From contig CAWEJW010000001.1 of the NCBI GenBank assembly GCA_963809535.1, forward strand, positions 617,354-681,353: a DNA stretch of 64,000 bases, in the 5' to 3' direction. The DNA is from an uncultured Actinomycetes bacterium (GTDB lineage: Bacteria; Actinomycetota; Coriobacteriia; Anaerosomatales; CAVRZR01). Position 1 is the stretch's first letter, and every line of letters starts with the position of its first letter. Below, in pieces: positions 14,013 through 64,000 of this stretch. The position numbers and the translations under genes are program-made. Below the pieces are notes generated by a model. That model saw nothing but the letters and a program-made list of their open reading frames with translations. It searched no databases and had not been told where the DNA came from.

Positions 14013-14027
14013 CACGTCTGGGCTGAC

Positions 14028-36010: not shown

Positions 36011-37099
36011 TCATTTGCTTTCGGGGATACGCAGGATCTGGATCCGGTTGTTCGTCGTGTCCGCTACGGCAAACCAGTCGCGTTCCTTGTCATAAGCGAT
36101 GCCCGTTGGGTTGTTGAACAGGCCGTCTGTCGCGCCGTAGTCGCCGTACATGGCCGACGTCTGGTCGTGCTCCTTTGCCACTTTGCCGGTTTTGGCATCC
36201 AGCACGATGATCTTGAACTTGAACGCGTCGACAAGCACGATCCTGCCCTTGGCATCCATCGTCATCCCTGTGGGCATCTCGAAGGGATTCTTCGGGTCGG
36301 GTGTGCGCCGAATGTCGACTGTCGAGGAATCCTCGCGATTGGGAGCCGTGCCGGATATCCAGAGCAGGCGGCCGTCTTCTGAGTACGCCTTCACGCGTCG
36401 GTTCTGAGTGTCGGAGACATAGAGGGTGCCATCCGGACCGAGAAGGATCCCGTGCACCACGTCGAACTGCTCCTTGTCGGTCCCGCGGGTGCCGCCAAGC
36501 TGCATCAAGATCTGGTCGTCAGGCGTGAACACCGCGATGCCCTTGGTACTGCCGACGGCGATCTTGCCGTCACGAACGTCGACGACATTCGGCAGCTCCA
36601 CCCGCCATTTGGTCACGAACGTCCCGTCTGGACGGAACTCAAGAACCTGCCCGCCGAAGTCGGCGGTCCATAGATTGCCGTCCTCGTCCACCGAGATCCC
36701 CTCGAGTGAAACGATGCCCTTGGGTTCGATGACCCGCTTGACCGTGCCATTGGGATTGAACCCGACGATGTGGGAGTGTCCAGAGATCGCCCAGATCGTG
36801 CCATCGGGGCCAATGGCGACGTCGGTGGGTGCTTCGAGTTGCTGGTCAGCTTGGGTGCCCCACCCGTAGAGCGACCTGACCCACGTGACTCCGGATGGCA
36901 GCTCGGCCTTCGTCGGAGCTGCTGAGGGACGGGTCAATCTGAGCACGCCGTACGCCACGACGGCGAGAAGCAGCACGAGTACCCCAAGGATAACGGCGAG
37001 CACTCGGCGCTGTCGTCGATTGTCGACGTACTCGACGACGGTTTCGGCGTATTCCCCAGGCTCTTGGATTCCGGGCGTTGTCTCGGGCGTCTCGCTCAT
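36011..37099 (-). CDS. membrane-anchored NHL-repeat beta-propeller protein
   Basis: GGAGGA SD and an N-terminal TM helix (VLAVILGVLVLLLAVVAYGVL). Repeated blades follow: P.GIA..DG.I.V.D..N.RV, e.g. GPDGTLYVSDTQNRRVKAY and FNNPTGIAYDKERDWFAVADTTNNRIQIL. Confidence 0.8.
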   Translation of the reverse strand: MSETPETTPGIQEPGEYAETVVEYVDNRRQRRVLAVILGVLVLLLAVVAYGVLRLTRPSAAPTKAELPSGVTWVRSLYGWGTQADQQLEAPTDVAIGPDGTIWAISGHSHIVGFNPNGTVKRVIEPKGIVSLEGISVDEDGNLWTADFGGQVLEFRPDGTFVTKWRVELPNVVDVRDGKIAVGSTKGIAVFTPDDQILMQLGGTRGTDKEQFDVVHGILLGPDGTLYVSDTQNRRVKAYSEDGRLLWISGTAPNREDSSTVDIRRTPDPKNPFEMPTGMTMDAKGRIVLVDAFKFKIIVLDAKTGKVAKEHDQTSAMYGDYGATDGLFNNPTGIAYDKERDWFAVADTTNNRIQILRIPESK

Positions 37100-37130: not shown

Positions 37131-37907
37131 CTACTTGTCCGTGGCTTCGGCCTTCTTGAGGCCTTCTGTGGCGGAGGCGTCGTCAGGCAGGAACTGCAGC
37201 GCGTACTTGAAATCCTTGGCGGCTGAAGTCTTGTCGCCGGCACCCAACTCGGCCCATCCCCGCAATACGATGATATCGGCCGCCTGCTCGTCCAGCGCCA
37301 GTGCCGCATTGAAGGATTGGATCGCTTCCTTGTACTTCTTCAGGTTCTGCTGTGCAGTGCCTCGCAGCACGAGCAGCCTGATGGTCGTACTGTTGTTCTG
37401 CGCCTCGTCGGGGACACGAATCCCCTTCTGGAGGTTCGCGTTGAACTCCTCTTTCAGCAACGCCTCGTCCTTCAAGAGGTATGCCTGGGAGCGCGCCAAA
37501 GCCTCCGCGTTCCTTCCTTCGAGGATGAGGAGGTGGAGGTCGACGTTGTTGACCTCACGGATGGTCTTGTCGGTGACTTGCGTGCGAGCGCGCACCAGGG
37601 CTTCCTGCGCGCCTTCCTTGTCGCCAACGGCGTACAACGCCTCGGCGTAGTCAGCCCACGCCTGCCCATTGCCAGGGTTCGCTTTGACAGCCGACTCGTT
37701 GGCGGCTCGCACCGACTCAGCCCAGGTACGCGGCGTGGAGCGGAAGAACACCCCCGTCAACAGAGCGTACGCAAGCACGGCCACGATCAGGCAGCCGACG
37801 CCGATGGACGCCCAGAGCAGTATGCGGGATACCCGATCTGGCGAAGACTCGAGAGGTTCTTCCACGTACTCAGGCGTCTCAGAGAATGGCGAGCCACTCA
37901 TTTGCAC
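37131..37907 (-). CDS. membrane-anchored TPR-repeat protein
   Basis: One TM helix (ILLWASIGVGCLIVAVLAYALL), then TPR-like helical repeats (AWADYAEALYAVGDKEGAQEAL; YKEAIQSFNAALALDEQ; AAKDFKYALQFLPDD). Upstream of and co-oriented with the NHL gene. Start is GTG 37907 or ATG 37901. Confidence 0.75.
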   Translation of the reverse strand: MQMSGSPFSETPEYVEEPLESSPDRVSRILLWASIGVGCLIVAVLAYALLTGVFFRSTPRTWAESVRAANESAVKANPGNGQAWADYAEALYAVGDKEGAQEALVRARTQVTDKTIREVNNVDLHLLILEGRNAEALARSQAYLLKDEALLKEEFNANLQKGIRVPDEAQNNSTTIRLLVLRGTAQQNLKKYKEAIQSFNAALALDEQAADIIVLRGWAELGAGDKTSAAKDFKYALQFLPDDASATEGLKKAEATDK

Positions 37908-38264: not shown

Positions 38265-40982
38265 GTGAGTCGCATGGGACCGGCGCTATTTGGACGCCAC
38301 TGGGTCGTCGCGGTCTTTCTTCTAGCTGCGGCGGTCTTGGCGTTGGCGCCTTTCGCTGTCGCGGGCGTGTCAGATGTGCCAGCTGACCTCCACGCGGCTG
38401 CGGGCGCGAAGTCGCCCATCGTGGTGAGTCTGTCTTGGGCCGCCCCATCTGGGTCCTCGGTTTCCGGATACCGCGTGTACGTGGCGGAACACGAAGACGG
38501 CCCGTATGATCTGGCGACATCAACGCCCGGCTACTCGTTTGACTACGTTGAAGGGGAATCCGGGTGGCCCTACTACTTCCTAGTCACTTCGGTTGACGCC
38601 GACGGCGTGGAGTCCGCCGCAGCCCAGGCTGGTCCAGTCGCGTCCAAGTGGATCGAGTCGCCACATGGCGCCTTCTCGGAAACCAGCCACAACTGCGAGC
38701 ATTGTCATTCGGTTCACGACGCGGACGGCAATCTTCTGCTCGATATTCTGAGGACGGATGAGGCGTCCGACACCCCAGACCAGTCCAGGGCCTGTTTCCG
38801 ATGTCATGGAGGGCAGTCAGCCGATTCGGCGAACGTCGAGGACGGCTCTCGCGACTCCTTCGCGCTTGCCAGCGGGCATTCCGTCGATGCTTCAGCAAAT
38901 GCCGGCTTGATCAGCGCGTGCTCGAGCTGCCATTGGGTTCACGGCGACTCCGAGGTTCGCCCGATGATCCCAGCATTGACGGTCAATGGACTCTCGGTAG
39001 CATCCAGCGGGCCCGAGCTGTGTTACGCGTGCCACGACGCAAAGAACACTTGGTACGACGGCAACTACCCCTCGCCATCGTCCCCTCCGCGAGACGCCTC
39101 AGGGTACCCGGTGAGCGGAACCTGGATGGGCCCGGCGACCTACAAGGGTGGGTCCAACGCGCACCGGCTCATTCCTGAGACGACGCAGACTGCGGGGTTT
39201 GTGGCGCCCGTCCGTCGTGCGCAGGGAGACTGCCTGTACTGCCACGCGGCCCACAGGGGCTCGAACAAGTACGACTCCCTCTTGACGACCTTCACCCCGT
39301 CGACCACGTCATCGCTGGCCTCGGATCAGAGGCACGGCACCTACGCGGCGCTATGTCTCGACTGTCACGGTGGATCCGTGCCGAGCGGCTTCGAGACGGC
39401 GCCGACGGATATCGCGCAGTTCGTCACCACGTCGACAGCAGACGCCACGTCGGGCCATCGAATCAAGACAGCCGGCGGGACCCTCCCCGTAGGGGCGCCG
39501 CTGCCCTGCTATGAGTGTCACAACCCCCACGGATCGACTCGCGGGAATGCGAGCATGCTCTCCGATGTCGTGGGCGGGAGTCTTGAGACGAGTAGCGACG
39601 CCGGAGTGCGGCATTTCTGCTTCAGCTGCCATACGACCTCCGACACGGTTCGCGGGTGGGACAGCGATGAGTCGATCTTCTCTCCGGTCGGAGAAACCGA
39701 CTCCGTTGTCGGGATTGCGCGGACCGGAGGCGTGCTTCGGCTGCCGCCTCTGGCGGCTCACTCCCAGGCGAGTGCCACTTCGTGCTATGCGTGTCATGGC
39801 TCCGACTATCGCACCGGCGGCAGCAATGTCCACAACCCGGGTCTTGGCGGCTACGACCCCGAGGCGCACACCTCGACGGTAACCACCGCGACGATCACGA
39901 TCCTCGGGACGCCTTACACGGACCGCGCATGCGCAGACTGCCATGTTCTCGAGCTGGGCCCGCTCCACATGCCTCCAGCCGACTGCGCAGACTGCCACGA
40001 CACGCTCGTGCCGATCCCCGGCGGCTGGGACAAGGGCTGCGTCCAGGCAGGTTGTCATCCGGCAGGCTCACCGCTCGAGATCCATGTCGACATCGACGCC
40101 TCACACATGCGCTCGGCGGAGCCTACGGCCGCCGACACCTGCTTCGTCTCCGAGTGCCACACGGGCGGTGGTAGCCTCGCGGACATCCACGCGAACAAGC
40201 AGAGCTGCGACACGTGCCACAGCTTGGACAGAGCGCCGACCGGCAACTGCGAAGCGAGCGGCTGCCATGATTTGGGCAAACCACACGAAGATCTGACGAT
40301 CGCCCACACGTCGAGCGGTGGCACCGACTTCGTCTCGGTCGGGATCCAGGACAGGCGCCACGGCTACTACGACGGCGTGACCGCAAACTGCTCGGATTGC
40401 CACATCACAAGCCTGATCCCGCTGCACTCGGGCGATTGTCAGACGTGCCACACGAGCTCCGTGAGCGAAGCCGTCAAGGACGCTATCGCGAACGACGACA
40501 CGAACTGCACGTCGTGCCACCCGGGCCACCACAGCGGAGATATCGACGCTCACTACAGCGTGGTCAGCGACGGCTGCCACAAGTGCCACAACGCGGATCC
40601 CTATGTGGACTCGTCCAACGTCACCTGCACGGGATGCCACACGCCACCCAACAGGGAGACGTTCGTCAACCCTGAGCGCATCACTGGGACCATCCGCCTT
40701 GTCTTTGGCGACTGCGATGTGAGTGGCAGCGCTCCGCCTGAGCATTCATATGCCGTGTGGACGGTGCGGAGTGGCGGGGCAGACGGGCCGGTTGTGGCTT
40801 CTGGCGGGGGCTTCGACGGCAGCGGGTGGGATGGCATCGATGATGTCATGGTCTTCGCACAGCCACAGCCATATCACGTCTACATCGAGTGGTACGACAG
40901 GGAGTCGGACAACTCGGGGGAGAGCTTCTTCTCTCAGGTAGACGTGACCACGTCAGGCCAGCTCGCAACGTTGCACTACTAG
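38265..40982 (+). CDS. large exported multihaem c-type cytochrome with N-terminal FN3-like domain (17 CxxCH + 3 CX4CH; 905 aa)
   Basis: Signal/anchor HWVVAVFLLAAAVLALAPFAVAG. FN3-like segment (SLSWAAPSGSSVSGYRVYV...YYFLVTSVDADGVES). Then 17 CxxCH motifs plus CVQAGCH, CFVSECH and CEASGCH, and a haem-free beta-rich C-terminal ~100 aa. Confidence 0.85.
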   Translation: MSRMGPALFGRHWVVAVFLLAAAVLALAPFAVAGVSDVPADLHAAAGAKSPIVVSLSWAAPSGSSVSGYRVYVAEHEDGPYDLATSTPGYSFDYVEGESGWPYYFLVTSVDADGVESAAAQAGPVASKWIESPHGAFSETSHNCEHCHSVHDADGNLLLDILRTDEASDTPDQSRACFRCHGGQSADSANVEDGSRDSFALASGHSVDASANAGLISACSSCHWVHGDSEVRPMIPALTVNGLSVASSGPELCYACHDAKNTWYDGNYPSPSSPPRDASGYPVSGTWMGPATYKGGSNAHRLIPETTQTAGFVAPVRRAQGDCLYCHAAHRGSNKYDSLLTTFTPSTTSSLASDQRHGTYAALCLDCHGGSVPSGFETAPTDIAQFVTTSTADATSGHRIKTAGGTLPVGAPLPCYECHNPHGSTRGNASMLSDVVGGSLETSSDAGVRHFCFSCHTTSDTVRGWDSDESIFSPVGETDSVVGIARTGGVLRLPPLAAHSQASATSCYACHGSDYRTGGSNVHNPGLGGYDPEAHTSTVTTATITILGTPYTDRACADCHVLELGPLHMPPADCADCHDTLVPIPGGWDKGCVQAGCHPAGSPLEIHVDIDASHMRSAEPTAADTCFVSECHTGGGSLADIHANKQSCDTCHSLDRAPTGNCEASGCHDLGKPHEDLTIAHTSSGGTDFVSVGIQDRRHGYYDGVTANCSDCHITSLIPLHSGDCQTCHTSSVSEAVKDAIANDDTNCTSCHPGHHSGDIDAHYSVVSDGCHKCHNADPYVDSSNVTCTGCHTPPNRETFVNPERITGTIRLVFGDCDVSGSAPPEHSYAVWTVRSGGADGPVVASGGGFDGSGWDGIDDVMVFAQPQPYHVYIEWYDRESDNSGESFFSQVDVTTSGQLATLHY

Positions 40983-46971: not shown

Positions 46972-47008
46972 TATGGCGGCCGCAGAACGGCCCCTATCGG
47001 AGGCAATC

Positions 47009-47410
47009 ATGTCTACAGACCACATCACGCTGACCGTGCCGGCGAAGGACGAATACGCCAAGACCGCGCGCATGACGGCAGCGGCCCTCGTCAGCCGCAT
47101 GGACATCCCGTACGACGATCTGGACGACGTGAAGACGGCCACAGAGGAGGCCTTCATCTACGCGTGCGACGCCGAACCCGCTTCCGGAGAGGTCACGCTG
47201 CATTTCTACGTCGATGACGAGTCACTGCGGATCGAGGTGCCTATCGCCCCGGGCTCGCGGACGTGGAGCGAGGATGCGGACAGACGCAGCGCTCTTGCGA
47301 CCTTCATCCTGCAGGGAGTCTGCGACACCTACGAGATGTCTTCCGACGAGTCGGGCGCATGGCTCCGCCTGTCCAAGCGTTTCGGCCCGGTGAGCGTGGA
47401 TGCCGGCTAG
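47009..47410 (+). CDS. putative anti-sigma regulatory factor (RsbW/SpoIIAB-like fold, degenerate)
   Basis: GGAGG SD. Size and position (directly upstream of and overlapping the SigB/F-type sigma gene) fit, as does the pattern L.VPA..EY....R......V......P.DDLDD.K.A..EA. No clear ATP-binding N/G boxes. Confidence 0.45.
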   Translation: MSTDHITLTVPAKDEYAKTARMTAAALVSRMDIPYDDLDDVKTATEEAFIYACDAEPASGEVTLHFYVDDESLRIEVPIAPGSRTWSEDADRRSALATFILQGVCDTYEMSSDESGAWLRLSKRFGPVSVDAG

Positions 47411-48182
47411 GGGCAAACAGCCGCAGACCCGCAAGCTCTCCTGGGACAAGGTCTACACCAGGGAGCTCTTTCGTCGCTATCGACTGGAAGGAGACGAAGC
47501 GGCTCGCGACGAGCTCATCACCATGTACCTGAACCTGGTGAAGTACCTCGCAAGCCGGTTCAGGAATCGCGGAGAGCCGGTCGACGACCTCGTTCAGGTG
47601 GGGACGATCGGCCTCATCAAGGCGATCGACCGTTTCGACATCGAGCGGCAGGTCGAGTTCACGACGTACGCGACCCCGACCATCGTCGGCGAACTCAAGC
47701 GGTACTTCCGGGACAAGGGATGGGCGATCAAGGTCCCGCGGCGACTACAGGAACTCTCGTTCAAGGTGAACCAGGCAGTGGACGCGCTCACGCAGCAGAA
47801 CCAACGGTCGCCCAGCATCGAGGAGATTGCCAGGTACCTCGGGGTCACGACCGAGGACGTCCTCGAGGCGATGGAGACGTCGGAGGCGTACAACTTCGTG
47901 TCGCTGGAAAGCGACAGGGGCTCGGACGGCTCCGACACGTTCAGCATCCTCGAATACATCGGCAAAGACGACGCGCTCATGGCGGTCGTCGACGATCGGA
48001 CCACACTCTCATTCGCGCTGAAGCAGCTCACGCCACAAGAGCAACGCGTCCTGTACTTGCGCTTCTTCGAGGGTCTGACGCAGACAGAGATCGCCCATCA
48101 GCTAGAGATCTCGCAGATGCAGGTTTCCCGTTTGTTGCGCAGGACGCTGCGCACCCTGCGTGAGCACGTGGTGAAGGAGTAG
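47400..48182 (+). CDS. SigB/SigF/SigG-subfamily RNA polymerase sigma factor
   Basis: Motifs DDLVQVGTIGLIKAIDRFD, F.TYA.PTI.GE.KRYFRD..W...VPRR.QEL and QTEIA..L.ISQMQVSRL. Confidence 0.85.
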   Translation: MPARGKQPQTRKLSWDKVYTRELFRRYRLEGDEAARDELITMYLNLVKYLASRFRNRGEPVDDLVQVGTIGLIKAIDRFDIERQVEFTTYATPTIVGELKRYFRDKGWAIKVPRRLQELSFKVNQAVDALTQQNQRSPSIEEIARYLGVTTEDVLEAMETSEAYNFVSLESDRGSDGSDTFSILEYIGKDDALMAVVDDRTTLSFALKQLTPQEQRVLYLRFFEGLTQTEIAHQLEISQMQVSRLLRRTLRTLREHVVKE

Positions 48183-48188
48183 GGCTGA

Positions 48189-49391
48189 ATGCCCGACCAG
48201 GCCAATCAGACCAACCGGTTCGCGCGGCTCCGTAGTACGGCGGTAGCGGTGTGGACGGCCATCGGCATCCTGCTGCTGATCTACGCCGGCGGGCTGGTAG
48301 TCAGCCGCATCAGCTCGGCTATCGTCCCCTTTGTCATCGCGGGCATCATCGCGTTCCTGTTGCGAGCACCCGTTGACTATCTCGAACGGCGCACGGGACT
48401 GCCCCGCGGTTTGGCCGTGATCCTGTGCTTCGTCATCGCCCTCGCCGTGCTTGTGGTCGCCGGGCTGTTCCTCATACCGCCTCTGGTGAGGCAGATACAA
48501 GCTTTTGCCTCAGCGGTCCCCGACTACCTCACGGCCGCACAGAACATCGTCAACAATCTGCAGCAGCAATACAGCTCGCTGGCGGCTCCAGTCTGGATCC
48601 GCAACGTAGTGAGCGCGGCCACAAACGATATCGGTGCACTCGCTTCGAGGATAGCGGAGGGCGCGGGCGGCCTCATCCTTGCGGCGGGAACCGGCGCAGT
48701 CACCGCGCTTATCGACGTACTCCTCGCGCTGGTCGTCGCCTTCTGGCTGCTCAAGGATCTGCCGACCATGCGGCGCGAACTGGACAAGCTCGTCGGCCCT
48801 CGGTTCGAGGAAGACGCCGAAGTCCTTGTGGTCACGGTGAATCGTGTCGTTGGCGGCTACCTGAGGGGCCAGACGATCGCGTCCTCTGTGACCGGCACCC
48901 TTTCCGCCATCGGGCTGGCGATCATCGGCTTGCCCTACGCGCTCGTACTCGGACTCATTGTGTTCGTGCTCAACTACATCCCCTACGTAGGTCCGCTCAT
49001 GGCCGGGGTCATCGCGGCCACGGTGGGGCTGTTCCAGAGCCCGCTGCAGGCCCTCCTAGCGATAGTGGTCGTCGTCGCGGCACAACAGATCACCGACAGT
49101 TTCATCACCCCAAGGGTGATGTCGCAGCAGGTGAACCTGCACCCAACATTCGTCATCTTCGCTCTCCTGGTCGGCGCCACGCTTATGGGCATTCCCGGGA
49201 TGATCATCGCCATCCCCATCGCCGCCCTCATCCAGGGGCTCTTCGTCTACTATTACGAGCGTCGCACGCGTCGGCAGCTTGCGAGCGAGAGCGGCGCTTT
49301 CTTCAAGGCTCCCACGAGTCCCGCCGAGGAAGAGCCGTCAGAGGAGACGCCGCCACCGCCGTCCGCGTGGAACGTCCCGCCGGGACAGTGA
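48189..49391 (+). CDS. AI-2E family transporter (PerM-like)
   Basis: Eight-helix hydrophobic profile. The LNYIPY.GP motif and the G.PG....IP conserved C-terminal segment are present. Confidence 0.8.
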   Translation: MPDQANQTNRFARLRSTAVAVWTAIGILLLIYAGGLVVSRISSAIVPFVIAGIIAFLLRAPVDYLERRTGLPRGLAVILCFVIALAVLVVAGLFLIPPLVRQIQAFASAVPDYLTAAQNIVNNLQQQYSSLAAPVWIRNVVSAATNDIGALASRIAEGAGGLILAAGTGAVTALIDVLLALVVAFWLLKDLPTMRRELDKLVGPRFEEDAEVLVVTVNRVVGGYLRGQTIASSVTGTLSAIGLAIIGLPYALVLGLIVFVLNYIPYVGPLMAGVIAATVGLFQSPLQALLAIVVVVAAQQITDSFITPRVMSQQVNLHPTFVIFALLVGATLMGIPGMIIAIPIAALIQGLFVYYYERRTRRQLASESGAFFKAPTSPAEEEPSEETPPPPSAWNVPPGQ

Positions 49392-55405: not shown

Positions 55406-56101
55406 GTGGCCGCGATGCGACGCACACCGGCCCGGCTCGGCGTGATCTTGCTGCTGCTAGTTGCACTCGTGCTAGCACAGAACGCCGCTGCGTCGCTCGC
55501 GCCGAGGGGTTCTTCGGCACAAACGGGGCGGCTCATCGGCCGCGCGGGCTTCGCATACTTGTCCGGGATTCGCACGTTCGCGGCGGCCGTGTTGTGGAAT
55601 CGGCTCGAACCGCAGTTCCACGAGTATTACGCCGACAAGAATCTTGAAGAACAGACGCAGATGCTCCCCACAATCAGGCTTGTGCAGATGCTCGACCCGC
55701 AATTCGTGCAGTCGTACTACATCGCGTCTTGGGTGCTGGCGCGACGTGGCAAGGCTGGCCAAGGGCTCGACAATGCGCGTGAAGGCGTTTCCCAGAACCC
55801 CTCTTCCGGTCTTCTGCGATCTAATCTCGTCCAGGTCATGCTGCTGGAGGACAAGGTCAAGTACGCCGCCGAGGCGGTGGCACAGGCCGACGCCGGGACC
55901 GCTCCTGGCATCATCTGGGCAGACGACGCTGAGAAGTTCGAGGGCTACGCTATCTTTGCAGCCGCCTACCACGTCGCGGGACTGACGGGCAAAGAGAAGG
56001 CCGCGAGAGCAGTAGTCAGCTCGCTCGCGGGCAAGACCAGTACGTCGGGCATCGGCGGCGCAGGGCACGATCATGACGGAGATGGAACGCCGGACCATTA
56101 G
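55406..56101 (+). CDS. hypothetical exported/membrane-associated helical protein
   Basis: N-terminal signal/anchor, helical repeat-like body and a His/Asp/Gly tail. No family recognised. Confidence 0.45.
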   Translation: MAAMRRTPARLGVILLLLVALVLAQNAAASLAPRGSSAQTGRLIGRAGFAYLSGIRTFAAAVLWNRLEPQFHEYYADKNLEEQTQMLPTIRLVQMLDPQFVQSYYIASWVLARRGKAGQGLDNAREGVSQNPSSGLLRSNLVQVMLLEDKVKYAAEAVAQADAGTAPGIIWADDAEKFEGYAIFAAAYHVAGLTGKEKAARAVVSSLAGKTSTSGIGGAGHDHDGDGTPDH

Positions 56102-56636
56102 GGGCGCCATGTCGCTGTTTGAGCCGGACCTGTACTACCGTGCCGTCACCGACATCGATCTGGATGAGCTGATGCACCGAGGGGTGCGGACGCTCCTGCT
56201 CGACCTCGACAACACGCTCGTGCTCCGCAACACCCTGGAGGCGTCGAATGAGGTTCTCGCCTGGCTTCACACGGCCACGGCGAAGGGTCTCAACGTGATC
56301 GTCGTTTCGAACAACTGGCATGAGCGCGTGCAGCACGCTTCCAGTAGCCTCGGGGTGCCCGTCGTCGGGAGGGCCACAAAGCCGCTGCCATCAGGATTTC
56401 GCCGTGCCCTGTCTTCGGATCAGCCGCCACGCACGTGCGCTGTGGTCGGCGACCAGATCTTCACCGATATTCTTGGGGGGAAGCTGCTGGGGGCTACGAC
56501 GGTGCTGGTCACACCTCTCGCGGGCGGATCGGATCTTCCGCACACACGCATCCTTCGCGCACTCGAGCGTCGGATCCTGCGCGGCCGCACGCCTGCGGGG
56601 CGAGTGCGCACGTCAGCAGAGGGGAGCGGGGTCTGA
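56073..56636 (+). CDS. YqeG-family HAD-IIIA phosphatase
   Basis: LLLDLDNTLV (motif I), SNN (motif II) and VGDQIFTDILGG (motif IV). An alternative start is ATG 56109. Confidence 0.7.
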   Translation: MTEMERRTIRGAMSLFEPDLYYRAVTDIDLDELMHRGVRTLLLDLDNTLVLRNTLEASNEVLAWLHTATAKGLNVIVVSNNWHERVQHASSSLGVPVVGRATKPLPSGFRRALSSDQPPRTCAVVGDQIFTDILGGKLLGATTVLVTPLAGGSDLPHTRILRALERRILRGRTPAGRVRTSAEGSGV

Positions 56637-57514
56637 TGCGATCCATAGGCGGGGCGACGAGGCTAGCGGGCGTGATTGGCCATCCGCTGGGGCACACTCT
56701 CTCGCCCGCGATGCACAACGCGGCCTACGAGGCCATGGGCCTGGACTGGGTCTATGTGCCGCTCCACGTTCGCGATGAGCGGGGTTTGCAGGCCGTCCTT
56801 CGCGCAATGCGTGTCCTTCCCTTCGTTGGCGTGAACGTCACGATGCCGTACAAGCAGCTCATGCTGTTGCTCTGTGACGAGGTCGCTGAGATGGCCACGC
56901 TTGCTGGGGCTGTGAACACGGTTCAGTGCGTCGAGGGCAAGCTGATCGGCTACAGCACAGACGGCCGCGGCATCCTCGAAGCCCTGGCGTTGGACGCGGG
57001 CTTCGACCCCGCCGGACGCGAGATCGCGATCCTGGGGGCGGGGGGCGCCGCCGCAGCTGCCCTCGTCGCCTTCGCGTTAGGGCACGCAAGGCGGATCGTG
57101 GTGCTCAACCGCTCGGAGGACCGCGCGAACGCTTTGATCGAGCGGGTTCACGAGCGGCTGCAAGGCGTAGATCTCGTTGCTCTGCCTCTGGATCTGGACG
57201 CGGAGGATCAGGTCCGAGCGGCCGATCTGGTGCTCAATGCCACACCTGTGGGCATGGAGGCGGAGGACCCTAGCCCTGTACCGGTCACGTGGCTTCGGTC
57301 GGGGCAGGTTGTTGCCGATATGGTGTACAGGGCGCAGCCTACCTCCCTCGTGCGGGCCGCGCGGGACGCGGGAGCGGTCGCCCTCGACGGGCTCGGGATG
57401 CTCGTGTGCCAAGGAGCGATGTCGATCGACATCTGGCATGGCGAGGCTGGCAAAAGGGCCCCTCGGGAAGTGATGCGCGCGGCGGCCCTCGCCGCACTCG
57501 ACGGGGGCGCGTAG
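56636..57514 (+). CDS. aroE: shikimate dehydrogenase
   Basis: Motifs G.IG.P..HTLSP.MHN.A, G.NVT.P.K, NT, G.NTD-like STDG.G, GAGGAA.A and D..Y.P..T. Start at the internal ATG (TGATG overlap). Confidence 0.9.
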   Translation: MRSIGGATRLAGVIGHPLGHTLSPAMHNAAYEAMGLDWVYVPLHVRDERGLQAVLRAMRVLPFVGVNVTMPYKQLMLLLCDEVAEMATLAGAVNTVQCVEGKLIGYSTDGRGILEALALDAGFDPAGREIAILGAGGAAAAALVAFALGHARRIVVLNRSEDRANALIERVHERLQGVDLVALPLDLDAEDQVRAADLVLNATPVGMEAEDPSPVPVTWLRSGQVVADMVYRAQPTSLVRAARDAGAVALDGLGMLVCQGAMSIDIWHGEAGKRAPREVMRAAALAALDGGA

Positions 57515-57538
57515 ACCTGCGGGAGTGAAGTCGGCCAC

Positions 57539-59206
57539 ATGACGCCGAGCAGCAAGCGACTGGGTAGGATGCTGGTCAAGTCGGGCGTGATCACTGACGC
57601 CCAGCTTGAGGAGGCGCTCACGCACGTCAACGGGCGCTCAATCACGGCGGCACTCTCAGAACTGGGCTTTGCCGACGAGACGCTCATCGCCCGCACGATC
57701 GCGGACTCGATGAATCTCTGTTACGTCGACCTCGGTCTTGCCGACGTCGATCCTCACGCGGCCACACTCATCCCTATGGATATCGCCCGTCGCTACCGTG
57801 CGTTGCCGATCCGCATCCAAGACGACGAACTCCTCGTCGCGATGTCGGACCCGGCCAACATCTTCGCGATCGATGATCTCAGGGTGGTGACCGGCTACCC
57901 CGTGAGGCCAGTCGTTGCCTCGGAGAGCGAGCTCATGAGCGCGATCGAGAAGCTCTCGACCGCGCAGACGAGCGTCGAAGACATGATGGGGGACCTAGAG
58001 GATTCGCTGGGCGCCGGTGACGACGAGTACGAGGAAACCTCTGACGAAGAGGCTCCCGTGGCGAAGCTCATGAACTTGGTGATCACGGAGGCGATCAGAC
58101 AGGACGCTGGCGATATCTTCTTCGAGCCGCACGAGCATGACATGCGTGTGCGCTTTCGGATCGATGGCGTGTGCCAGGAGGTCCTCCGAAGTCCGAAGAA
58201 GATGCAGCGCCAGCTGATAAGCCGGCTCAAGATCAGCGCCGGTATGGATATCGCCGAGAAGCGCGTGCCGCAAGACGGGCGGTTCTCCGTCGTGCTCGAG
58301 GGCAAGGCGGTGGACTTTCGAGTGGCGGTCCTTCCCACCGTGAACGGAGAGCTCGCGGTCCTGAGACTCCTTCGGCGGGACTCGATCATGATGTCGCTCG
58401 CAGATCTCGGGTTCCTGCAGCAGCCCATGGATCGCCTGCGTGAGGCACTGTCCCTTCCCTACGGCGCAATCCTGGTCACCGGACCGACGGGGTCAGGCAA
58501 GTCGACCACGCTCTACGCAGCGATCAACGAGACCAACGACCCCAAACAGAACTTGATCACCGTCGAGGATCCTGTCGAGTATCGCCTCGCCGGGCTCTCA
58601 CAGGTGCAGGTGCACGAGAAGGCCGGGCTCAGCTTCGCGTCCGCTCTTCGCTCCATCCTGAGGCAGGACCCAGACTCAGTGATGATCGGGGAGATCCGCG
58701 ACAAGGAAACCGGGACGATCGCCGTCGAGGCCGCCCTCACGGGTCACCTCGTGCTGTCGACCCTGCACACCAACGACGCACCTTCGGCGATCACCCGCCT
58801 TACGGAGATGGGCATCGAGCCGTTCCTCACAGCTTCTGCGGTGACGTGCGTACTCGCACAGCGTCTGGCCAGACGCCTGTGCCCTGACTGCAAGCAGAAG
58901 TACACACCCGAAGAGGAGGCGCTGACCAGGGTCGCCTTCCCGTTTAAGCCCGGGAAGCCGCCGAAGCTCTACCGCGCCGTCGGCTGCAAGAAGTGCAGCG
59001 GCATAGGCTACAAGGGGCGCATGGGCGTCCACGAAGTGTTCCGCATGTCCGAGGAGCTTGAGCGGCTGACCGTCGCCAACGCCTCGGCTGACGACATCAA
59101 GCGCCAGGCCATCGCGGAAGGCATGCGCACGTTGCGCGAGGACGGGTTCGAGAAAGTGAGCATGGGTCTCACCTCCATCGAAGAGGTCATGCGCGTCGTC
59201 GTCTGA
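57539..59206 (+). CDS. pilB: GspE/PilB-family type IV pilus / type II secretion assembly ATPase
   Basis: T2SSE_N-type N-terminus (LG..LV..G.IT..QL..AL), Walker A GPTGSGKST, Asp/His boxes and tetracysteine CPDC...CKKC. Confidence 0.85.
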   Translation: MTPSSKRLGRMLVKSGVITDAQLEEALTHVNGRSITAALSELGFADETLIARTIADSMNLCYVDLGLADVDPHAATLIPMDIARRYRALPIRIQDDELLVAMSDPANIFAIDDLRVVTGYPVRPVVASESELMSAIEKLSTAQTSVEDMMGDLEDSLGAGDDEYEETSDEEAPVAKLMNLVITEAIRQDAGDIFFEPHEHDMRVRFRIDGVCQEVLRSPKKMQRQLISRLKISAGMDIAEKRVPQDGRFSVVLEGKAVDFRVAVLPTVNGELAVLRLLRRDSIMMSLADLGFLQQPMDRLREALSLPYGAILVTGPTGSGKSTTLYAAINETNDPKQNLITVEDPVEYRLAGLSQVQVHEKAGLSFASALRSILRQDPDSVMIGEIRDKETGTIAVEAALTGHLVLSTLHTNDAPSAITRLTEMGIEPFLTASAVTCVLAQRLARRLCPDCKQKYTPEEEALTRVAFPFKPGKPPKLYRAVGCKKCSGIGYKGRMGVHEVFRMSEELERLTVANASADDIKRQAIAEGMRTLREDGFEKVSMGLTSIEEVMRVVV

Positions 59207-59335
59207 GAGTCTCTGAGTGCGCGTTGTGCCTGAATCACCATCGTGAGAGTATGAATCCGCGTGTCGCCCGACAGGGGAGAGTCGTGCGGCCGACTTGGTG
59301 CTACCCGACGGGCGAATGCGGAGGAGCTTGAATCA

Positions 59336-60136
59336 GTGACCAGCAGCGGACTCGACGACTTCTTCATCCCGGACGAGGACGACGAGGATCAGGGCACGAT
59401 GCCACCGCCTTCCGACGGTGTGACTGCCTCCGCGACCCAAGACCTTCACGCGCCCCTGGTATCAGGCACGCCCGGACCGCCCTCGGTGCCTGCTGCCGGG
59501 AAGCACGCTCCGGGAGCGCAGGGCGCATCTTCGGCGCCAGCGCCGCAGCCGATGGCGCCTCGGACAGCTCCCGCGCCTGCTCGACCTGATGCAGAGACTC
59601 AGGTCCCGGCGCGCCCGGGCTTTGCGCCCTTCCCAACGCCAGCGCCTCGCGCCGAGGCCTCGCCCGTTTCTCCTGCCACACCACCCAAGCCCGCCGCGCC
59701 CGTGTCAGCTGCGTCCGCAATCGCCGCGCCCGCTACGGCTGCGCAAACCGCTCCCACGCGCCCGGTTCGGACGCGGGAGGAGCAGCTCTCCGCGGCGTTG
59801 GCGACGTTCATGCGCGTGTCCTCGGACGTCGAGGCCGCCGCGCTCGTCAGCATCGACGGCTTCACGATGGCCTCCGCACTTCCCGCGGGGATGCAGGAGG
59901 ACCGTGTCGGCGCGATGTCCGCGGCCATCCTCGGGCTTGGCGAGCGTGCAGCTCTCGAGCTCGGACGTGGCAAGCTCTCGCAGGTCTTCATCGAGGGGGA
60001 CACGGGCTACGTTCTGCTGATGGCGGCAGGGGACAGAGCGGTGCTCACGGCGCTCGCGCGTCTCGAGGCAAAGCTCGGTCTGCTCCTCTACGACATGCGC
60101 GACGTGGCCGAAGCCATCGCCGACATCCTGGGCTAG
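59336..60136 (+). CDS. Roadblock/LC7 (MglB-like) domain protein with Pro/Ala-rich N-terminal region
   Basis: GGAGGAG sits 9 nt before GTG 59336. The C-terminal ~120 aa (VEAAALVSIDGFTMAS...MSAAILGLGERAA.ELG.G.L.QVFIEG..GYVLL...G..AVL.AL) follow the Robl/LC7 pattern. Confidence 0.7.
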   Translation: MTSSGLDDFFIPDEDDEDQGTMPPPSDGVTASATQDLHAPLVSGTPGPPSVPAAGKHAPGAQGASSAPAPQPMAPRTAPAPARPDAETQVPARPGFAPFPTPAPRAEASPVSPATPPKPAAPVSAASAIAAPATAAQTAPTRPVRTREEQLSAALATFMRVSSDVEAAALVSIDGFTMASALPAGMQEDRVGAMSAAILGLGERAALELGRGKLSQVFIEGDTGYVLLMAAGDRAVLTALARLEAKLGLLLYDMRDVAEAIADILG

Positions 60137-60170
60137 CCGAGCAGGGAACCGAAAGCGAATGACGTAGCCG

Positions 60171-61862
60171 ATGGCGCTGAGAGGAAACCTCAACGACTTC
60201 ACGCTTCCCGATGTCTTCCAGCTCATCGCCCTGAGCAAGAAGACCGGTGTGCTGCGCATGCGCCGTGCAGACGGTTCCGAAGGCGACGTCTGGTTCCGCG
60301 ACGGAGAGGTGTTCTTCGCCGAGTCGAATTGGCACAGGGAACGGCTTGGAGAGCGGCTGGTCACAGCGCAGAAGATCACTCCGAGCGCGCTCACGCGGGT
60401 ACTTGAGCTGAGGGCAGCAGAACCAGAGAACGGGCGGCGCCTCGGCAGGATCCTCGTCGACGAGGGCTACATCACCGACGCAGTTCTCGAGGCGTTCGTT
60501 CGAGAGCAGGTGCTCGAGCCGATATTCGACCTCATGCGTTGGGAAGAGGGCGAGTTCGACTTCGAGATGACCCCCCAGACCCCCGAAGAAGACATCGGCC
60601 TGGCCGTCTCCATCGAGAACATAGTGATGGAAGGTGCCAGGCGACTCGAAGAATGGGAGAGGATCAAGAAGAAGGTGCCCTCGACGGACGTGGTCTTCAA
60701 GATGGCCACGGCGCCCGGCGAGGGAAGCTTCGAGATCTCGCTCAAACCCGTCGAGTGGAACCTGCTGCTGCTCGTCGATGGCACCCGGAGCGTAGCCGAG
60801 CTGGCGCGCGCGGCCCACTGGACGGAATTCGACGCGGCGCGAATCGTGTACGGTCTGCACTCCGCCGGACTGCTCGAGGTGGTCAGCGATGAAGAGGCGG
60901 CTCGGCTGCGCGAGGCGATGGCCGAGCGCGAGGCCGCCATGGCGGCAGCCGCATCTGCTCCAAAGGCACCTGCCCCGGTGAGTACGAGCACGGAGCCGTC
61001 AGCAGCCCCTGTGACTGAACCTGCGCCCGAGACCGTCCCACCGGCCCCACCCGGCGGTGAACCTGCCGAGGCTCCGGAGGCCGAGGAGGTCACCGGTCCT
61101 GCAGCCGAGGTTGAGACGGGGGCTGAGCCGGTGGTCGAGGCTGAAGCCGAGGCAGAAGCCGAGCAACCGCCTGTGAGCGTCGAGTCAGCGGTCTCGTCGG
61201 AGGAGTGGCCCGAGGCACAGGAATCGCAGTCGGAGACGATCTTGTACGTTGACGGCGAGCCCGCGACCGTTGAGGTCGAGCTTGACGTTCTCCCACCCGA
61301 GACCGACATCCTGGAAACGCCGACGCCTGAGGCCGGTCAGGTGCAGCCAGATGAAGCTCGCGCCGCGGTCGAAGCTGAGCTCGCCGCGCTGGGTCTGATC
61401 GCCACTCCCGACGGCGTGGTGGAGGCGGAGCCGCCACCCGTCGTCGAGGAGCCTTCGCACGTCGAAGAACCCGAAGAGGCCGAAGAGGCCGAAGAGCCCG
61501 AGGAGCCGACGCATCCGGCGGAAGAGGCACCGGCCGAGGAATCCGGCGAGACTGCGACCGAGGAATCCGGCGAGCCCGTGGCCGAGGTCCCCGAGGAGCT
61601 GATGGCCGAAGCTGGGACGACCCAGACCGAGGTCGCCGTGAGCTTCCAGGAAGAGGCGGCCCTCTTGTTGGAGGCCCGCGAGGACCTCGGCATGAACAGC
61701 ACGATCACGGATGAGATCGCCGCGTTGACCGGCGTTGAACGCACCACGCGCCCTACCGCGAGCGGCGGCACGCCACCCGTGACCACCGCCGTGCCCCGCC
61801 GTGACGCGAACATCGACCGGGGAACCCTCCTCGATATCATCGAGGGCATCAAGAGACTCTAG
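60171..61862 (+). CDS. PATAN (DUF4388) domain protein with long acidic low-complexity C-terminal half
   Basis: The N-terminus LRGNLNDFTLPDVFQLIALSKKTGVLRM....G.VWFRDGEVFFA follows the DUF4388/PATAN pattern. The region from about aa 250 to 490 is E/P/A-rich. Confidence 0.7.
   Translation: MALRGNLNDFTLPDVFQLIALSKKTGVLRMRRADGSEGDVWFRDGEVFFAESNWHRERLGERLVTAQKITPSALTRVLELRAAEPENGRRLGRILVDEGYITDAVLEAFVREQVLEPIFDLMRWEEGEFDFEMTPQTPEEDIGLAVSIENIVMEGARRLEEWERIKKKVPSTDVVFKMATAPGEGSFEISLKPVEWNLLLLVDGTRSVAELARAAHWTEFDAARIVYGLHSAGLLEVVSDEEAARLREAMAEREAAMAAAASAPKAPAPVSTSTEPSAAPVTEPAPETVPPAPPGGEPAEAPEAEEVTGPAAEVETGAEPVVEAEAEAEAEQPPVSVESAVSSEEWPEAQESQSETILYVDGEPATVEVELDVLPPETDILETPTPEAGQVQPDEARAAVEAELAALGLIATPDGVVEAEPPPVVEEPSHVEEPEEAEEAEEPEEPTHPAEEAPAEESGETATEESGEPVAEVPEELMAEAGTTQTEVAVSFQEEAALLLEAREDLGMNSTITDEIAALTGVERTTRPTASGGTPPVTTAVPRRDANIDRGTLLDIIEGIKRL
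61534..61574 (+). repeat. 17-nt direct repeat CCGAGGAATCCGGCGAG x2 (24-nt period) inside the acidic region
   Basis: Identical copies at 61534-61550 and 61558-61574, encoding (A/T)EESGE. Nearby are GAAGAGGCC/GAAGAGCCC iterations (61461-61505). Confidence 0.6.
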
Positions 61863-61874
61863 GAGCCAGGCTGG

Positions 61875-62402
61875 ATGCTGTCCGTAAAAGTCGTGATAAC
61901 CGGCCCCTTCAACGCGGGCAAGACTACCCTCATCAAGACCGTGAGCGAGATCACGGTACTCTCGACAGAGCGTCAAGTGAGTGAGACGGCAAGCGAGGGG
62001 CGTGGGGAGACGACCGTTGCGATGGACTTCGGTCGCATCACGATCTCTGACGACGTCGTCCTCTACTTGTTCGGCACGCCCGGCCAGGAGCGGTTCTCGT
62101 TCATGTGGGACACGTTGTCCGAGGGTATGCTCGGCTTTGTCGTGCTCGTCGACGGAACGGATGAGGACTCCTTTTCCGACGGACGGGCGATCGTCGAGTA
62201 TTTCAGACGACTCTCTGATGTCTCGTTCGTCGTTGCCGTCAATCGGCTGGATGGTTCTGACGAACAGGATCTCGCACGGGCGCGTTCAGAGTTGGGTCTG
62301 GACGACAACGTGCCGGTTCTCGGGGTGGACGCGAGGGACAAGGAATCTGTCAAAGCCGTGCTGTTGGCTCTCCTATACACGATCTTGGAGGCCGTCGGGT
62401 AG
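61875..62402 (+). CDS. small Ras-like GTPase (MglA / conservon CvnD-like ATP/GTP-binding protein)
   Basis: AGGAG SD. G1 GPFNAGKTT, G3 GTPGQERF and G4-like VNRLD. 175 aa. Confidence 0.75.
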   Translation: MLSVKVVITGPFNAGKTTLIKTVSEITVLSTERQVSETASEGRGETTVAMDFGRITISDDVVLYLFGTPGQERFSFMWDTLSEGMLGFVVLVDGTDEDSFSDGRAIVEYFRRLSDVSFVVAVNRLDGSDEQDLARARSELGLDDNVPVLGVDARDKESVKAVLLALLYTILEAVG

Positions 62403-62405
62403 CTC

Positions 62406-62855
62406 TTGTCTCTTTCGTCGGGCATTATCGTTGGCACCGTCGTGCTGGCCGTGTTGCTCCTAGGCGGCGGGTGCCTGGCGGTGCGTGTCCGCCGAACACG
62501 ACATCGTGAACCTTCTTGGCCCCAGCGTGAAGCTGCGGGCAGACATGGCACTTCGTCCGGGCGGTTCGAATCCGAGCAGAATGTCGGGGAGAGGTTAGGG
62601 TCGTGGACTCGCCGACCCGCCGAAGCCAAGCCAGCCGCCAATCCAACGTCAGCGGCAGGAACCGCCGGCGCCCCGGATCAGCGGCCACAGTCGCTTGAGT
62701 TGTCACCCGCGCCTCTCTTATCCCGTGAGCGCCTGATTGCGCCTGTGGAGCTTTGGTTCGGCTCGACCCGGGTGGGCGTCGTGCGGGGTAGCGCCACCCA
62801 TGAGGCGTTCGAGCAGTACGCGAGCGTTCTCTTATCCGAGCTGCCCGAGCGCTAG
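62406..62855 (+). CDS. hypothetical single-pass membrane protein
   Basis: TTG start 4 nt after the GTPase stop, an N-terminal TM helix, then a basic juxtamembrane stretch. No family recognised. Confidence 0.4.
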   Translation: MSLSSGIIVGTVVLAVLLLGGGCLAVRVRRTRHREPSWPQREAAGRHGTSSGRFESEQNVGERLGSWTRRPAEAKPAANPTSAAGTAGAPDQRPQSLELSPAPLLSRERLIAPVELWFGSTRVGVVRGSATHEAFEQYASVLLSELPER

Positions 62856-63027
62856 CCTGCGCCCGAGGCGCAGCCCGTCAGTCCACTGAACTCGCCCTTC
62901 CTTCGCCGTGCTTCATTCGGACTGTAATGCTCGCTGACGCGAACGCCGATGAGAGAGTTGGCGCCGCACGCGTTGGGCGCGGCCGTGCTTGGCGCACGTG
63001 CGGGCACGTTCTCTGAAGGGGCAGCGG

Positions 63028-64000
63028 GTGGCGGAGACTGGACAGAGGCTCGGGCAGATCCTTGTTCGCGCCGGCATAATCAGCGAGAGTCAGCTCAACG
63101 ACGCGCTGGAAGCGCATTTGGGGACTGGCGCGCCTCTGGGCCGCGTGCTCGTGGACTTGGGCTACGCCTCGCAAGGAGCCGTCCTCGCAGCGATCTCGGG
63201 CCAGATCGGCGTCGACTACGTCGACTTTGCGGAACGAAAGCCCGATCCCAACGCGATTGCATCCGTCCCGCGTGAACTCGCCTCGCGCTATCTGGTCATG
63301 CCTGTCGAGATCGTCGACCACACGCTCTTGGTCGCCATGGCCGACCCTCGCAACGTCGTTGCACTTGATGATCTGCGCATCATCACGGGCCTCGACGTCC
63401 GCGCCGCGATCTCCACGAAAGACGAGATCCTGAGCGCGATCGACGAGTACTACAAGATGGCCGAGCAGTCCGAGATCGACGAGTTCATCGGCAGCGCCGA
63501 CATCGACCAAGCCGACCTGGCGAACATCTCGGAGGTCGGCTCGGAAGCTCCGACCGTCAAAGTCGTGAACTTCATCATCCACAAGGCAGTCACGGAGCGC
63601 GCCTCGGACATCCACATCGAGCCGCAGGAGAAGGACCTCCGAGTGCGGTTCCGAGTCGACGGAGTACTTCACGAGGTGATGCGCAGCCCCAAGCCGACGC
63701 AAGCGGCGATCATCAGCCGGTTCAAGATCATGGCCGAGATGGACATCGCCGAGTCACGCAAACCCCAGGACGGGCACTGCAACGTGACTGTCGCGGGACA
63801 CAAGCTCGACTTCCGTGTGTCCACGCTGCCGACCGTCTATGGCGAGCGCGTCGTGCTCCGCATCTTGCGCAAGGACTCGATCCTGCTGCAGCTCAAAGAC
63901 TTGGGCTTTCTGCCGTCGTCGCTCGAGAAGTTCCAGGACTCCTTCACGAAGCCCTATGGCGCCATCCTCGTGACCGGTCCCACGGGATCGGGCAAGTCGA
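63028..64000 (+). CDS. second GspE/PilB-family ATPase (3' end outside window)
   Basis: This ORF is missing from the track because it runs off the window. From GTG 63028 the frame reads VAETGQRLGQILVRAGIISESQLNDALE...APTVKVVNFII..A....ASDIHIEP....RVRFRVDGVL......GPTGSGKS. Confidence 0.85.
   Translation, partial: MAETGQRLGQILVRAGIISESQLNDALEAHLGTGAPLGRVLVDLGYASQGAVLAAISGQIGVDYVDFAERKPDPNAIASVPRELASRYLVMPVEIVDHTLLVAMADPRNVVALDDLRIITGLDVRAAISTKDEILSAIDEYYKMAEQSEIDEFIGSADIDQADLANISEVGSEAPTVKVVNFIIHKAVTERASDIHIEPQEKDLRVRFRVDGVLHEVMRSPKPTQAAIISRFKIMAEMDIAESRKPQDGHCNVTVAGHKLDFRVSTLPTVYGERVVLRILRKDSILLQLKDLGFLPSSLEKFQDSFTKPYGAILVTGPTGSGKS

Follow-up and report, generated by a model that had tools for sequence, protein, structure and literature searches.

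Type IV pili are steered by Ras-like GTPases in Myxococcus and by PATAN proteins in cyanobacteria, and to our knowledge the PATAN domain has neither a solved structure nor a defined biochemical role. Gram-positive type IV pilus operons of the Clostridia type follow the order pilB-pilT-pilC-pilA-pilD-pilMNO and contain no secretin, and some Gram-positive species have PilB paralogues, among them the cyclic di-GMP (c-di-GMP) binding PilB2 of Clostridium perfringens. We know of no GTPase, Roadblock or PATAN genes embedded in operons of this type, and there were none in the literature we searched. That PATAN, Roadblock and GTPase genes share a neighbourhood has been on record since 2006, with PATAN genes located next to homologues of MglA and MglB (PMC4316618). 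It has been shown experimentally that cyanobacterial PATAN proteins set pilus activity (10.1101/2021.06.11.447907), and MshEN domains are already known as c-di-GMP receptors (PMC5013675). Here we describe a cassette of four genes, encoding a Roadblock/LC7 protein, a PATAN/DUF4388 protein, a Ras-like GTPase and a bitopic membrane protein, which lies between two genes for PilB-type pilus motors in an uncultured subsurface member of the Anaerosomatales (Coriobacteriia). The stretch analysed, referred to as the window, comprises 64,000 nucleotides (nt) of contig CAWEJW010000001.1. What is new in this locus is that the cassette lies within a Gram-positive pilus operon with a PilB paralogue on either side; in itself it is a variant of the known MglA/MglB-PATAN-pilus theme. 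The most likely purpose of the cassette is control of when the motor builds pili. A preliminary description had proposed an undescribed regulatory wiring for a pilus or secretion machine, and this proposal was supported. The literature searched contained no paper on a module of this kind flanked by two PilB paralogues within a Gram-positive pilus operon, nor on its membrane-tether partner or on the series of Roadblock loss and pseudo-GTPases reported below.

The six genes of the block (57539-64000) were all encoded on the + strand in the order PilB1, Roadblock/LC7 protein, PATAN/DUF4388 protein, Ras-like GTPase, bitopic membrane protein and PilB2. They are preceded by an open reading frame (ORF) for shikimate dehydrogenase (aroE) that ends at 57514. 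Successive intergenic gaps from the end of aroE to PilB2 measured 24, 129, 34, 12, 3 and 172 nt, so that gaps within the four-gene cassette ranged from 3 to 34 nt, and GGAGG Shine-Dalgarno-like sequences were found ahead of the Roadblock, GTPase and membrane-protein starts. PilB1 (57539..59206, + strand, 555 amino acids (aa)) is a complete hexameric ATPase of the PilB/GspE type (T2SSE 3e-138, MshEN 2e-22, TIGR02538 PilB 5e-186) with Walker A, Asp box, Walker B, His box and four Cys all intact. PilB2 (63028..64000, + strand; T2SSE 5e-52, MshEN 9e-23) starts by homology at about GTG 63028 and is cut at Walker A by the window end, and its catalytic motifs were complete in orthologues. Pfam and NCBIfam searches and hydropathy bore out the four cassette genes between PilB paralogues as they had been named previously; the two flanking ATPase genes had both been called full, which holds for PilB1, whereas only ~324 of the ~556 aa of PilB2 are present. 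A scan of 56000-64000 for promoters and terminators gave nothing above shuffled expectation, and Rfam, including its c-di-GMP riboswitches, had no matches in the window or in the related loci L001 and L020.

Scanning species-level genomes and metagenomes we recovered ~100 related loci in which the cassette is conserved, the named ones all from Coriobacteriia or from metagenome-assembled genomes (MAGs) of Actinomycetota; PATAN-TPR relatives from Vicinamibacteria (31-35% identity, unrelated context) were left out of the comparison. Window and relatives shared the upstream housekeeping order alaS-ruvX-mltG-ABC-HAD-aroE. In all syntenic relatives with enough sequence, the block was followed immediately by pilus genes, namely those for PilC, one to four prepilins (G/FTLxE leaders), prepilin peptidase (PilD), PilM, a PilN-sized gene product and PilO, and then by chorismate synthase (aroC). 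With aroE upstream and pil genes as far as aroC downstream, the cassette thus lies inside a Gram-positive-type type IV pilus operon between aroE and aroC, which in Anaerosomatales reads aroE-PilB1-(Roadblock-PATAN-GTPase-membrane protein)-PilB2-PilC-pilins-PilD-PilM/N/O-aroC. The gene complement of such a pilus was present in the relatives L001, L015, L018 and L020, the window itself ending inside PilB2. A lack of pilus genes nearby had been named beforehand as the observation that would speak against a pilus function, and the PilC, pilin, PilD, PilM and PilO genes of syntenic relatives show the opposite. Core gene set and order, and the lack of a secretin, are the same as in Clostridia-type operons.

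The module adjoins PilB in at least four gene orders. These are PilB1-Roadblock-PATAN-GTPase-membrane protein-PilB2 in the clade of the window; PilB1-PATAN-pseudoGTPase-PilB2, without Roadblock and membrane-protein genes, in L015, L018 and others; aroE-Roadblock-PATAN-GTPase-X-PilB, with a small protein X and a single PilB, in L022; and Roadblock-Roadblock-PATAN-GTPase-aroE-PilB-PilT-PilC in L098-L103. In L015 the pseudo-GTPase gene overlaps the start of PilB2 by 4 nt. PilT followed PilB2 in 9 of ~25 loci and most operons had no PilT between PilB2 and PilC, while each operon examined encoded PilC, PilD and the PilM/O set once. Several further features of these loci were observed. The members of the sister lineage L098-L103 (e.g. 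L099, 626-5799) combine two tandem Roadblock genes and a GTPase gene with a giant PATAN protein of 990-1222 aa, which includes an acidic linker of ~950 aa. In L018 a ParE/Phd toxin-antitoxin pair (13467-14086), encoded on the other strand, separates PilB2 from PilT inside the pilus operon. Three genes without family matches, encoding ~534, 181 and 546 aa, lie between PilD and PilM in L020 (16200-20002) and L001 (18501-20252); their products have prepilin-like N-termini (..DDGMTIVEIM.., ..RDEGYTLSELI..) and are candidates for tip proteins or for minor pilins of large size.

The Roadblock/LC7 protein (59336..60136, + strand, 266 aa; Robl_LC7 1.6e-14) belongs to PF03259 with 53.8 bits at a gathering cutoff of 23. 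Its ORF is open from 59261, and the start is likely the GTG at 59336, as judged from comparison with 14 aligned orthologues and from the Shine-Dalgarno sequence GGAGGAG ahead of it. An acidic conserved N-terminal peptide (GLDDFFIPDEDDED; consensus M-A-D-x-G-I-G-D-Y-F-I-S-D-V-D-D-E-L among 15 aligned orthologues) is connected by a variable Pro/Ala-rich linker of ~100 aa to the C-terminal Roadblock domain (~59840-60133). Searched against the PDB, the protein retrieved the uncharacterized Robl_LC7 protein 7f8m (5e-24) and two conservon-type proteins, Rv3364c (9e-9) and CvnB5 (2e-8), which were the closest among named solved structures, and did not retrieve MglB at E<=1. The sequence SIDGF contains an Asp-Gly pair of the kind that has been reported for MglBs coupled to GTPases of groups 2-5 (PMC4316618). 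An identity as MglB sensu stricto was rejected, since MglB was not retrieved from the PDB and the partner GTPase is not of group 1; by these comparisons the Roadblock partner is closer to the conservon protein CvnB than to MglB.

The GTPase (61875..62402, + strand, 175 aa; ATP_bind_1 6e-18, Ras 8e-10) showed 70% identity to its orthologue in Anaerosoma tenue. Alignments confirmed the motifs G1 GPFNAGKTT, G3 GTPGQE and G4 NRLD that had been reported before, and added G2 ETTVAMDFG and G5 DAR; G1 and G3 are intact, and G4 reads NRLD versus NKVD in most orthologues. Within the MglA family, group 1 (MglA/SofG) is defined by an arginine finger and TVPGQ and groups 2-5 by TT and GTPGQ (Wuichet & Sogaard-Andersen, PMC4316618). 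In the window GTPase Thr replaces the arginine finger of G2, giving TT, and GTPGQ stands in place of TVPGQ, so that by motif alignment and coupling to a Roadblock protein this GTPase belongs with groups 2-5 and not with group 1 (PMC4316618). Searched with phmmer, the PDB gave matches to Rab8A (8e-7) and MglA (4e-4). The AlphaFold2 model was mediocre, with a predicted local distance difference test score (pLDDT) of 66 and an unreliable P-loop and switch I, and Foldseek returned generic small GTPases, with MglA (3t1q, 24% identity) at rank 7 among the best matches. The likeness to MglA/MglB that had been suggested at the outset therefore holds insofar as an MglA-family GTPase is paired with a Roadblock protein, but the GTPase is not MglA sensu stricto and the Roadblock protein did not retrieve MglB.

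A comparison of all loci in which both features were readable (46 with Roadblock and 9 without) connected the two proteins. The P-loop Lys and the catalytic Gln of G3 were both kept in 45 of the 46 Roadblock-plus loci, the sole exception being L003, where the GTPase gene gave a split, frameshift-like match. None of the nine Roadblock-less loci kept both residues, with changes from K to T accompanied by Q to E, D or A, or from Q to R. Eight of them carried GxxxxGTTT with GTPG(E/D)E or worse, and the ninth, L086, kept the Lys, with a damaged G4 and the sequence GAPGRS. In L093 (GTPAQD), a tenth locus, there was likewise no room for a Roadblock gene. All Roadblock-less loci retained PATAN and a decayed GTPase between the PilB genes. 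A neighbour-joining tree of the PATAN domain placed the losses at two or three positions with Roadblock-plus lineages as outgroups, a count that is tentative as the tree carries no support values. Judged from these alignments, Roadblock and the catalytic residues of the GTPase co-evolve. We read the decay of catalytic residues where Roadblock is absent as a sign that the role of Roadblock is tied to the nucleotide cycle of the GTPase. The decayed GTPase is still kept between PATAN and PilB2, and we read this as pointing to an additional structural, nucleotide-independent role together with PATAN and/or PilB.

The PATAN/DUF4388 protein (60171..61862, + strand, 563 aa; PF14332 1.2e-34) scored 119.4 bits at a cutoff of 25 over aa 4-163, with an insertion of ~40 aa. 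It is conserved over its N-terminal 240 aa, past which it consists of no more than an acidic disordered tail and one short motif. No match to Response_reg was found in the protein, and an identity as a PatA-type response regulator (PATAN-REC) was rejected for lack of a CheY-like receiver domain. The AlphaFold2 model of aa 1-245 (pLDDT 88.9) showed a beta-alpha-beta-beta-beta core into which four helices are inserted (aa 59-122); the core then goes on with one more strand and a long helix, and next comes a winged-helix-like domain (aa 170-240; 60678..60890, + strand). The elements of this last domain are a strand (175-178), helices (193-201, 208-215 and 219-231) and a second strand (235-237), and its matches to MarR_2 and other helix-turn-helix families were weak (E 0.04-0.12) and below family thresholds. 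Foldseek found local winged-helix matches, including GATOR1/SEAC subunits and MarR proteins. DUF742, the domain of CvnC, was also tried for aa 170-240, and with sub-threshold MarR and helix-turn-helix matches and no DUF742 match at E<=10, conservon homology of this middle protein is not claimed. Nor do we claim a longin/Roadblock-like core, for which the fold search was non-significant and the GATOR1/SEAC matches were confined to local winged helices. The acidic Glu/Ala/Pro-rich linker (aa 245-503; 60903..61679, + strand), identified from composition and alignments, contains 27% D+E and 2% K+R and agrees with the acidic tail of ~250 aa noted in the preliminary description; its length in relatives varied from ~150 to ~480 aa in the aligned set, the giant proteins mentioned above apart. 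The C-terminal motif (..TDEIAALTG..RP..RRDANIDRGTLLDIIEGIKRL; 61680..61859, + strand), ending in ..VDKxxLLxIIEGIKxL, was kept in every lineage including those with pseudo-GTPases.

The insert of the PATAN domain (aa 56-122; 60336..60536, + strand) corresponds to the alpha-clip of cyanobacterial PATAN-REC proteins (PixE, PixG, LsiR, TaxP1) and forms a four-helix module resembling MshEN_N. Used as a profile against the PDB, it found only the N-termini of PilF, PilB and MshE, and by Foldseek it aligned to MshE with bound c-di-GMP (5htl_B) over 58 columns with a root-mean-square deviation of 1.4 A and 31% identity. The insert was 40% identical to aa 6-60 of PilB2 over 58 aa (E 4e-8). On these alignments the insert is homologous to the N-terminal MshEN module of PilB2, of which it represents a copy. 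A resemblance of the PATAN alpha-clip to repeats with which the ATPases' N1 domain begins has been noted before (10.1101/2021.06.11.447907). The insert and the PilB2 N-terminus share the tandem RLGxxLVxxGxIxxxxLxxxLxxQ-type motif of MshE, PilF and PilB; in contrast to the MshEN ATPases, the module of the window protein is inserted in a PATAN domain and is a candidate binding site only. With the c-di-GMP motif model NF053729 (cutoff 38 bits), the insert scored 41.6 and PilB2 56.1 bits, and PilB1 remained below the cutoff (30.8 bits) as the second of its half-sites is degenerate throughout the orthologues, motif I being present. We further tested the motifs against the published relaxed pattern, two motifs of 24 residues with a spacer of 5 (PMC5013675). 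PilB2 has a tandem MshEN at its N-terminus, and its motif I misses the pattern at the last residue only. In the window PATAN, motif II is near-perfect (RLGRILVDEGYITDAVLEAFVREQ) and motif I has degenerated, with Q for G10 and K for L11, while both motifs pass in the PATAN proteins of L098-L103. Enzymes of c-di-GMP metabolism occur in the lineage, since a GGDEF-EAL gene adjoins a PATAN paralogue in the MAG of L001.

This second PATAN paralogue is short (248 aa, no tail) and is encoded in a Che-like operon (L017, 7289-20417) of the order GGDEF-EAL, unknown, PATAN, CheR-TPR, CheY, PilB-like, two CheW, methyl-accepting chemotaxis protein, CheA and CheB. The PilB-like protein of that operon is a pseudo-ATPase, with K changed to R in Walker A and without catalytic Glu and His box.

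PilB1 and PilB2 of the window were ~51% identical to each other. The single PilB of L099 showed 53% identity to PilB2 versus 49% to PilB1, and from this comparison PilB2 is therefore taken as the ancestral-type motor and PilB1 as a derived paralogue.

The bitopic membrane protein (62406..62855, + strand, 149 aa) had no match in Pfam or NCBIfam. It has a single hydrophobic helix (aa 7-25, 62424-62480; mean Kyte-Doolittle 2.56) that is followed by RVRRTRHR, and a conserved C-terminal motif (62718-62846; LIAPVELWFGSTRVGVVRGSATHEAFEQYASVLLSEL). Orthologues ranged from 85 to 480 aa in total owing to a variable disordered linker, and conserved was the motif of ~45 aa, which is predicted to be cytoplasmic. 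The motif occurred in 104 representative clusters, always at the extreme C-terminus, and none of ten longer relatives tested carried a known domain alongside it. Roadblock (59336-59390), PATAN (61680-61859) and membrane protein (62718-62846), and not the GTPase, share a common design in which a conserved terminal peptide or motif is set off by a long, fast-evolving Pro/Ala/Glu-rich disordered linker.

We consider it likely that the cassette, from inside the pilus operon, gates the PilB motors as a G-protein switch that has PATAN as its adaptor and a tether to the membrane, and that c-di-GMP is an input. The GTPase would switch between GTP and GDP states, and the Roadblock protein, probably a dimer, would be its GTPase-activating protein (GAP) or another regulator of the nucleotide cycle. 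PATAN would be the adaptor or effector that couples the switch to the motor, and the bitopic protein would use its cytoplasmic C-terminal motif to anchor the complex to the membrane where the pilus has its base. Since the PATAN insert is a copy of the MshEN module of PilB2, it would either bind the same partner as this module or mimic it, and it may bind c-di-GMP, which would thus enter via PilB2 and possibly via the insert. The output would be permission for, or a choice between, two extension ATPases on a single PilC platform, with the consequence that pili are made or not. There is experimental precedent in Synechocystis, where PATAN-REC regulators bind the N-terminus of PilB1 as well as PilC (10.1101/2021.06.11.447907). 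Different from PATAN-REC, the window protein has no receiver and has a long acidic tail with a conserved C-terminal motif, and its input would be the GTPase and possibly c-di-GMP, not phosphorylation.

Several points weigh against this reading. Its support consists of genes and sequence comparison, from which we infer the physical interactions, the GAP activity, the binding of c-di-GMP and the sign of the effect on pili. The window ends before any pilus structural gene, the pilus context being given by synteny, and an exact-sequence look-up of the window GTPase aimed at DNA past 64000 returned no match. The reading does not explain why two catalytically intact PilBs are needed. For PATAN as a whole protein the fold search remained without a significant match (best E 0.02), so its core offers no mechanistic clue, and with a GTPase model as poor as the one obtained Foldseek was unable to tell MglA from Rab or Ras. 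Of the two motifs in the window PATAN, motif II alone fits the relaxed pattern, and they are spaced by 8 residues instead of 5, which makes c-di-GMP binding uncertain; binding by this protein is plausible but unproven. Finally, as the loci are phylogenetically non-independent, the contrast of 45/46 to 0/9 rests on about two or three events.

Other explanations would account for parts of the same evidence. The cassette might be a gate for motor exchange between two intact PilBs, in which the state of the GTPase, read by PATAN, selects which PilB occupies the single PilC platform. PilB2 would be the c-di-GMP-competent and PilB1 the c-di-GMP-blind motor, with the PATAN insert mimicking the PilB2 N-terminus. 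As most operons have no PilT, one of the paralogues might serve for disassembly or for another state of the filament, for example on an insoluble substrate such as ferrihydrite, and loss of Roadblock would have frozen the switch, the GTPase being kept as a pseudo-enzyme scaffold. We regard such a gate as possible but rather unlikely. Two motors could also power two separate machines, such as a competence pseudopilus and an adhesive pilus, with the cassette belonging to one of them. Both ATPases are indeed catalytically intact, only about half identical and different in their c-di-GMP motifs, but a single PilC, PilD and PilM/O set per operon, the lack of platform or pilin genes beside PilB1 and the retention of the module in single-PilB lineages make two machines quite improbable. 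Similarly doubtful, and slightly more so, is a function of PATAN as a DNA-binding transcription factor for pil genes that is modulated by GTPase and Roadblock. The winged-helix-like domain in the model and its weak MarR-type matches would fit, as would the DNA binding that was predicted in the original description of PATAN (as cited in 10.1101/2021.06.11.447907). However, the helix-turn-helix matches lay far under family thresholds (E 0.04-0.1), a long acidic tail would be unusual in a DNA binder, and in GATOR1 and similar GTPase regulators the winged helices are used for contacts between proteins. Cyanobacterial PATAN proteins are moreover located at the membrane and bind PilB1 and PilC, and DNA binding was deemed unlikely for them (10.1101/2021.06.11.447907).

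The remaining alternatives follow from two known kinds of GTPase/Roadblock systems. In Myxococcus xanthus and Thermus thermophilus, MglA and MglB likewise combine a Ras-like GTPase and a Roadblock/LC7 protein with a link to type IV pilus motors, and the positions of PilB and PilT in M. xanthus are set by MglA, SofG and MglB (PMC4316618). By analogy the cassette might be a polarity module, with GTPase and Roadblock marking a pole and sorting PilB1 and PilB2, or PilB and PilT, for directed twitching, and the two motor paralogues that flank the module together with the operons that have PilT after PilB2 would suit this role. The cassette GTPase differs from MglA, to which its similarity is weak, in its group-defining residues; MglB was not among the matches of the Roadblock protein, no RomR/RomX-like genes occur in the cassette, and PilT is absent between PilB2 and PilC in most operons. 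The cassette genes also lie inside the pil operon and not elsewhere in the genome. The cultured relatives among the Anaerosomatales (Anaerosoma, Parvivirga) are rods that lack motility and carry numerous pili-like appendages all around the cell, and their description does not discuss pilus genes (PMC9686372). This makes polarity control of the Myxococcus type, which the preliminary description had brought up, doubtful here, and we give it only a small chance. The cassette also resembles the conservons (CvnA-CvnD; MfpB of Mycobacterium) and might be a G-protein unit of this kind with an output of its own, e.g. in development or stress, that merely travels beside the pil operon. The host is likewise an actinobacterium, the Roadblock protein retrieved CvnB5 and Rv3364c, and the order of Roadblock, winged-helix-containing protein and GTPase mirrors cvnB-cvnC-cvnD. 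The TT, GTPGQ and DAR (G5) motifs of the GTPase are those described for groups 2 and 3 (PMC4316618). Yet there is no CvnA histidine kinase, as neither HATPase/HisKA nor DUF742 matched in the cassette, the bitopic tether stands in the place of the kinase, the middle protein is PATAN and not DUF742, and G4 is N[KR]xD (NKxD in most orthologues) and not NxFD. The module is moreover tied to PilB, which it always adjoins in the four arrangements listed above; PATAN follows directly downstream of PilB1 in Roadblock-less lineages (with a gap of 258 nt in L086) and carries a copy of a PilB N-terminal module. An output unrelated to pili is therefore unlikely.

All presumed partners, i.e. GTPase, Roadblock, PATAN, tether and two PilBs, are encoded next to one another in a single operon of a Gram-positive lineage. 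The loci further provide a natural deletion series, Roadblock with intact GTPase versus no Roadblock with decayed GTPase, throughout which PATAN is kept. Cultured members of the lineage (Anaerosoma, Parvivirga) make pili conditionally. The locus might thus serve as a compact testable system for how a G-protein talks to a pilus motor, for the role of PATAN and for whether the PilB-like insert senses c-di-GMP or acts as a decoy.

A link of the cassette to the cytochromes 17-26 kb upstream, which had been raised as speculation, found no support in synteny, and the genes in between are housekeeping genes (aspS-like, alaS, ruvX, mltG). The sole connection is that Parvivirga makes its pili only on ferrihydrite (PMC9686372). 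The three multihaem c-type cytochromes in question (31763-33307, 34243-35730 and 38265-40982, + strand) contain 6, 9 and 17 CxxCH motifs, the largest with MtrC/MtrF-like domain matches, and fit the Fe(III)-reducing lifestyle of Anaerosomatales; amid them NHL-repeat and TPR proteins are encoded on the - strand (36011-37099 and 37131-37907). Elsewhere in the window, a gene at 24961-28608 (+ strand) encodes a fusion of 1215 aa consisting of a complete RecJ exonuclease (DHH, DHHA1, RecJ_OB), HIRAN and DEAD/Helicase_C. At 46973-48182 (+ strand) the gene for an anti-sigma-type HATPase_c_2 kinase overlaps the start of a sigma-70-family (SigB-like) gene, which is followed by a gene for an AI-2E family transporter (48189-49391).

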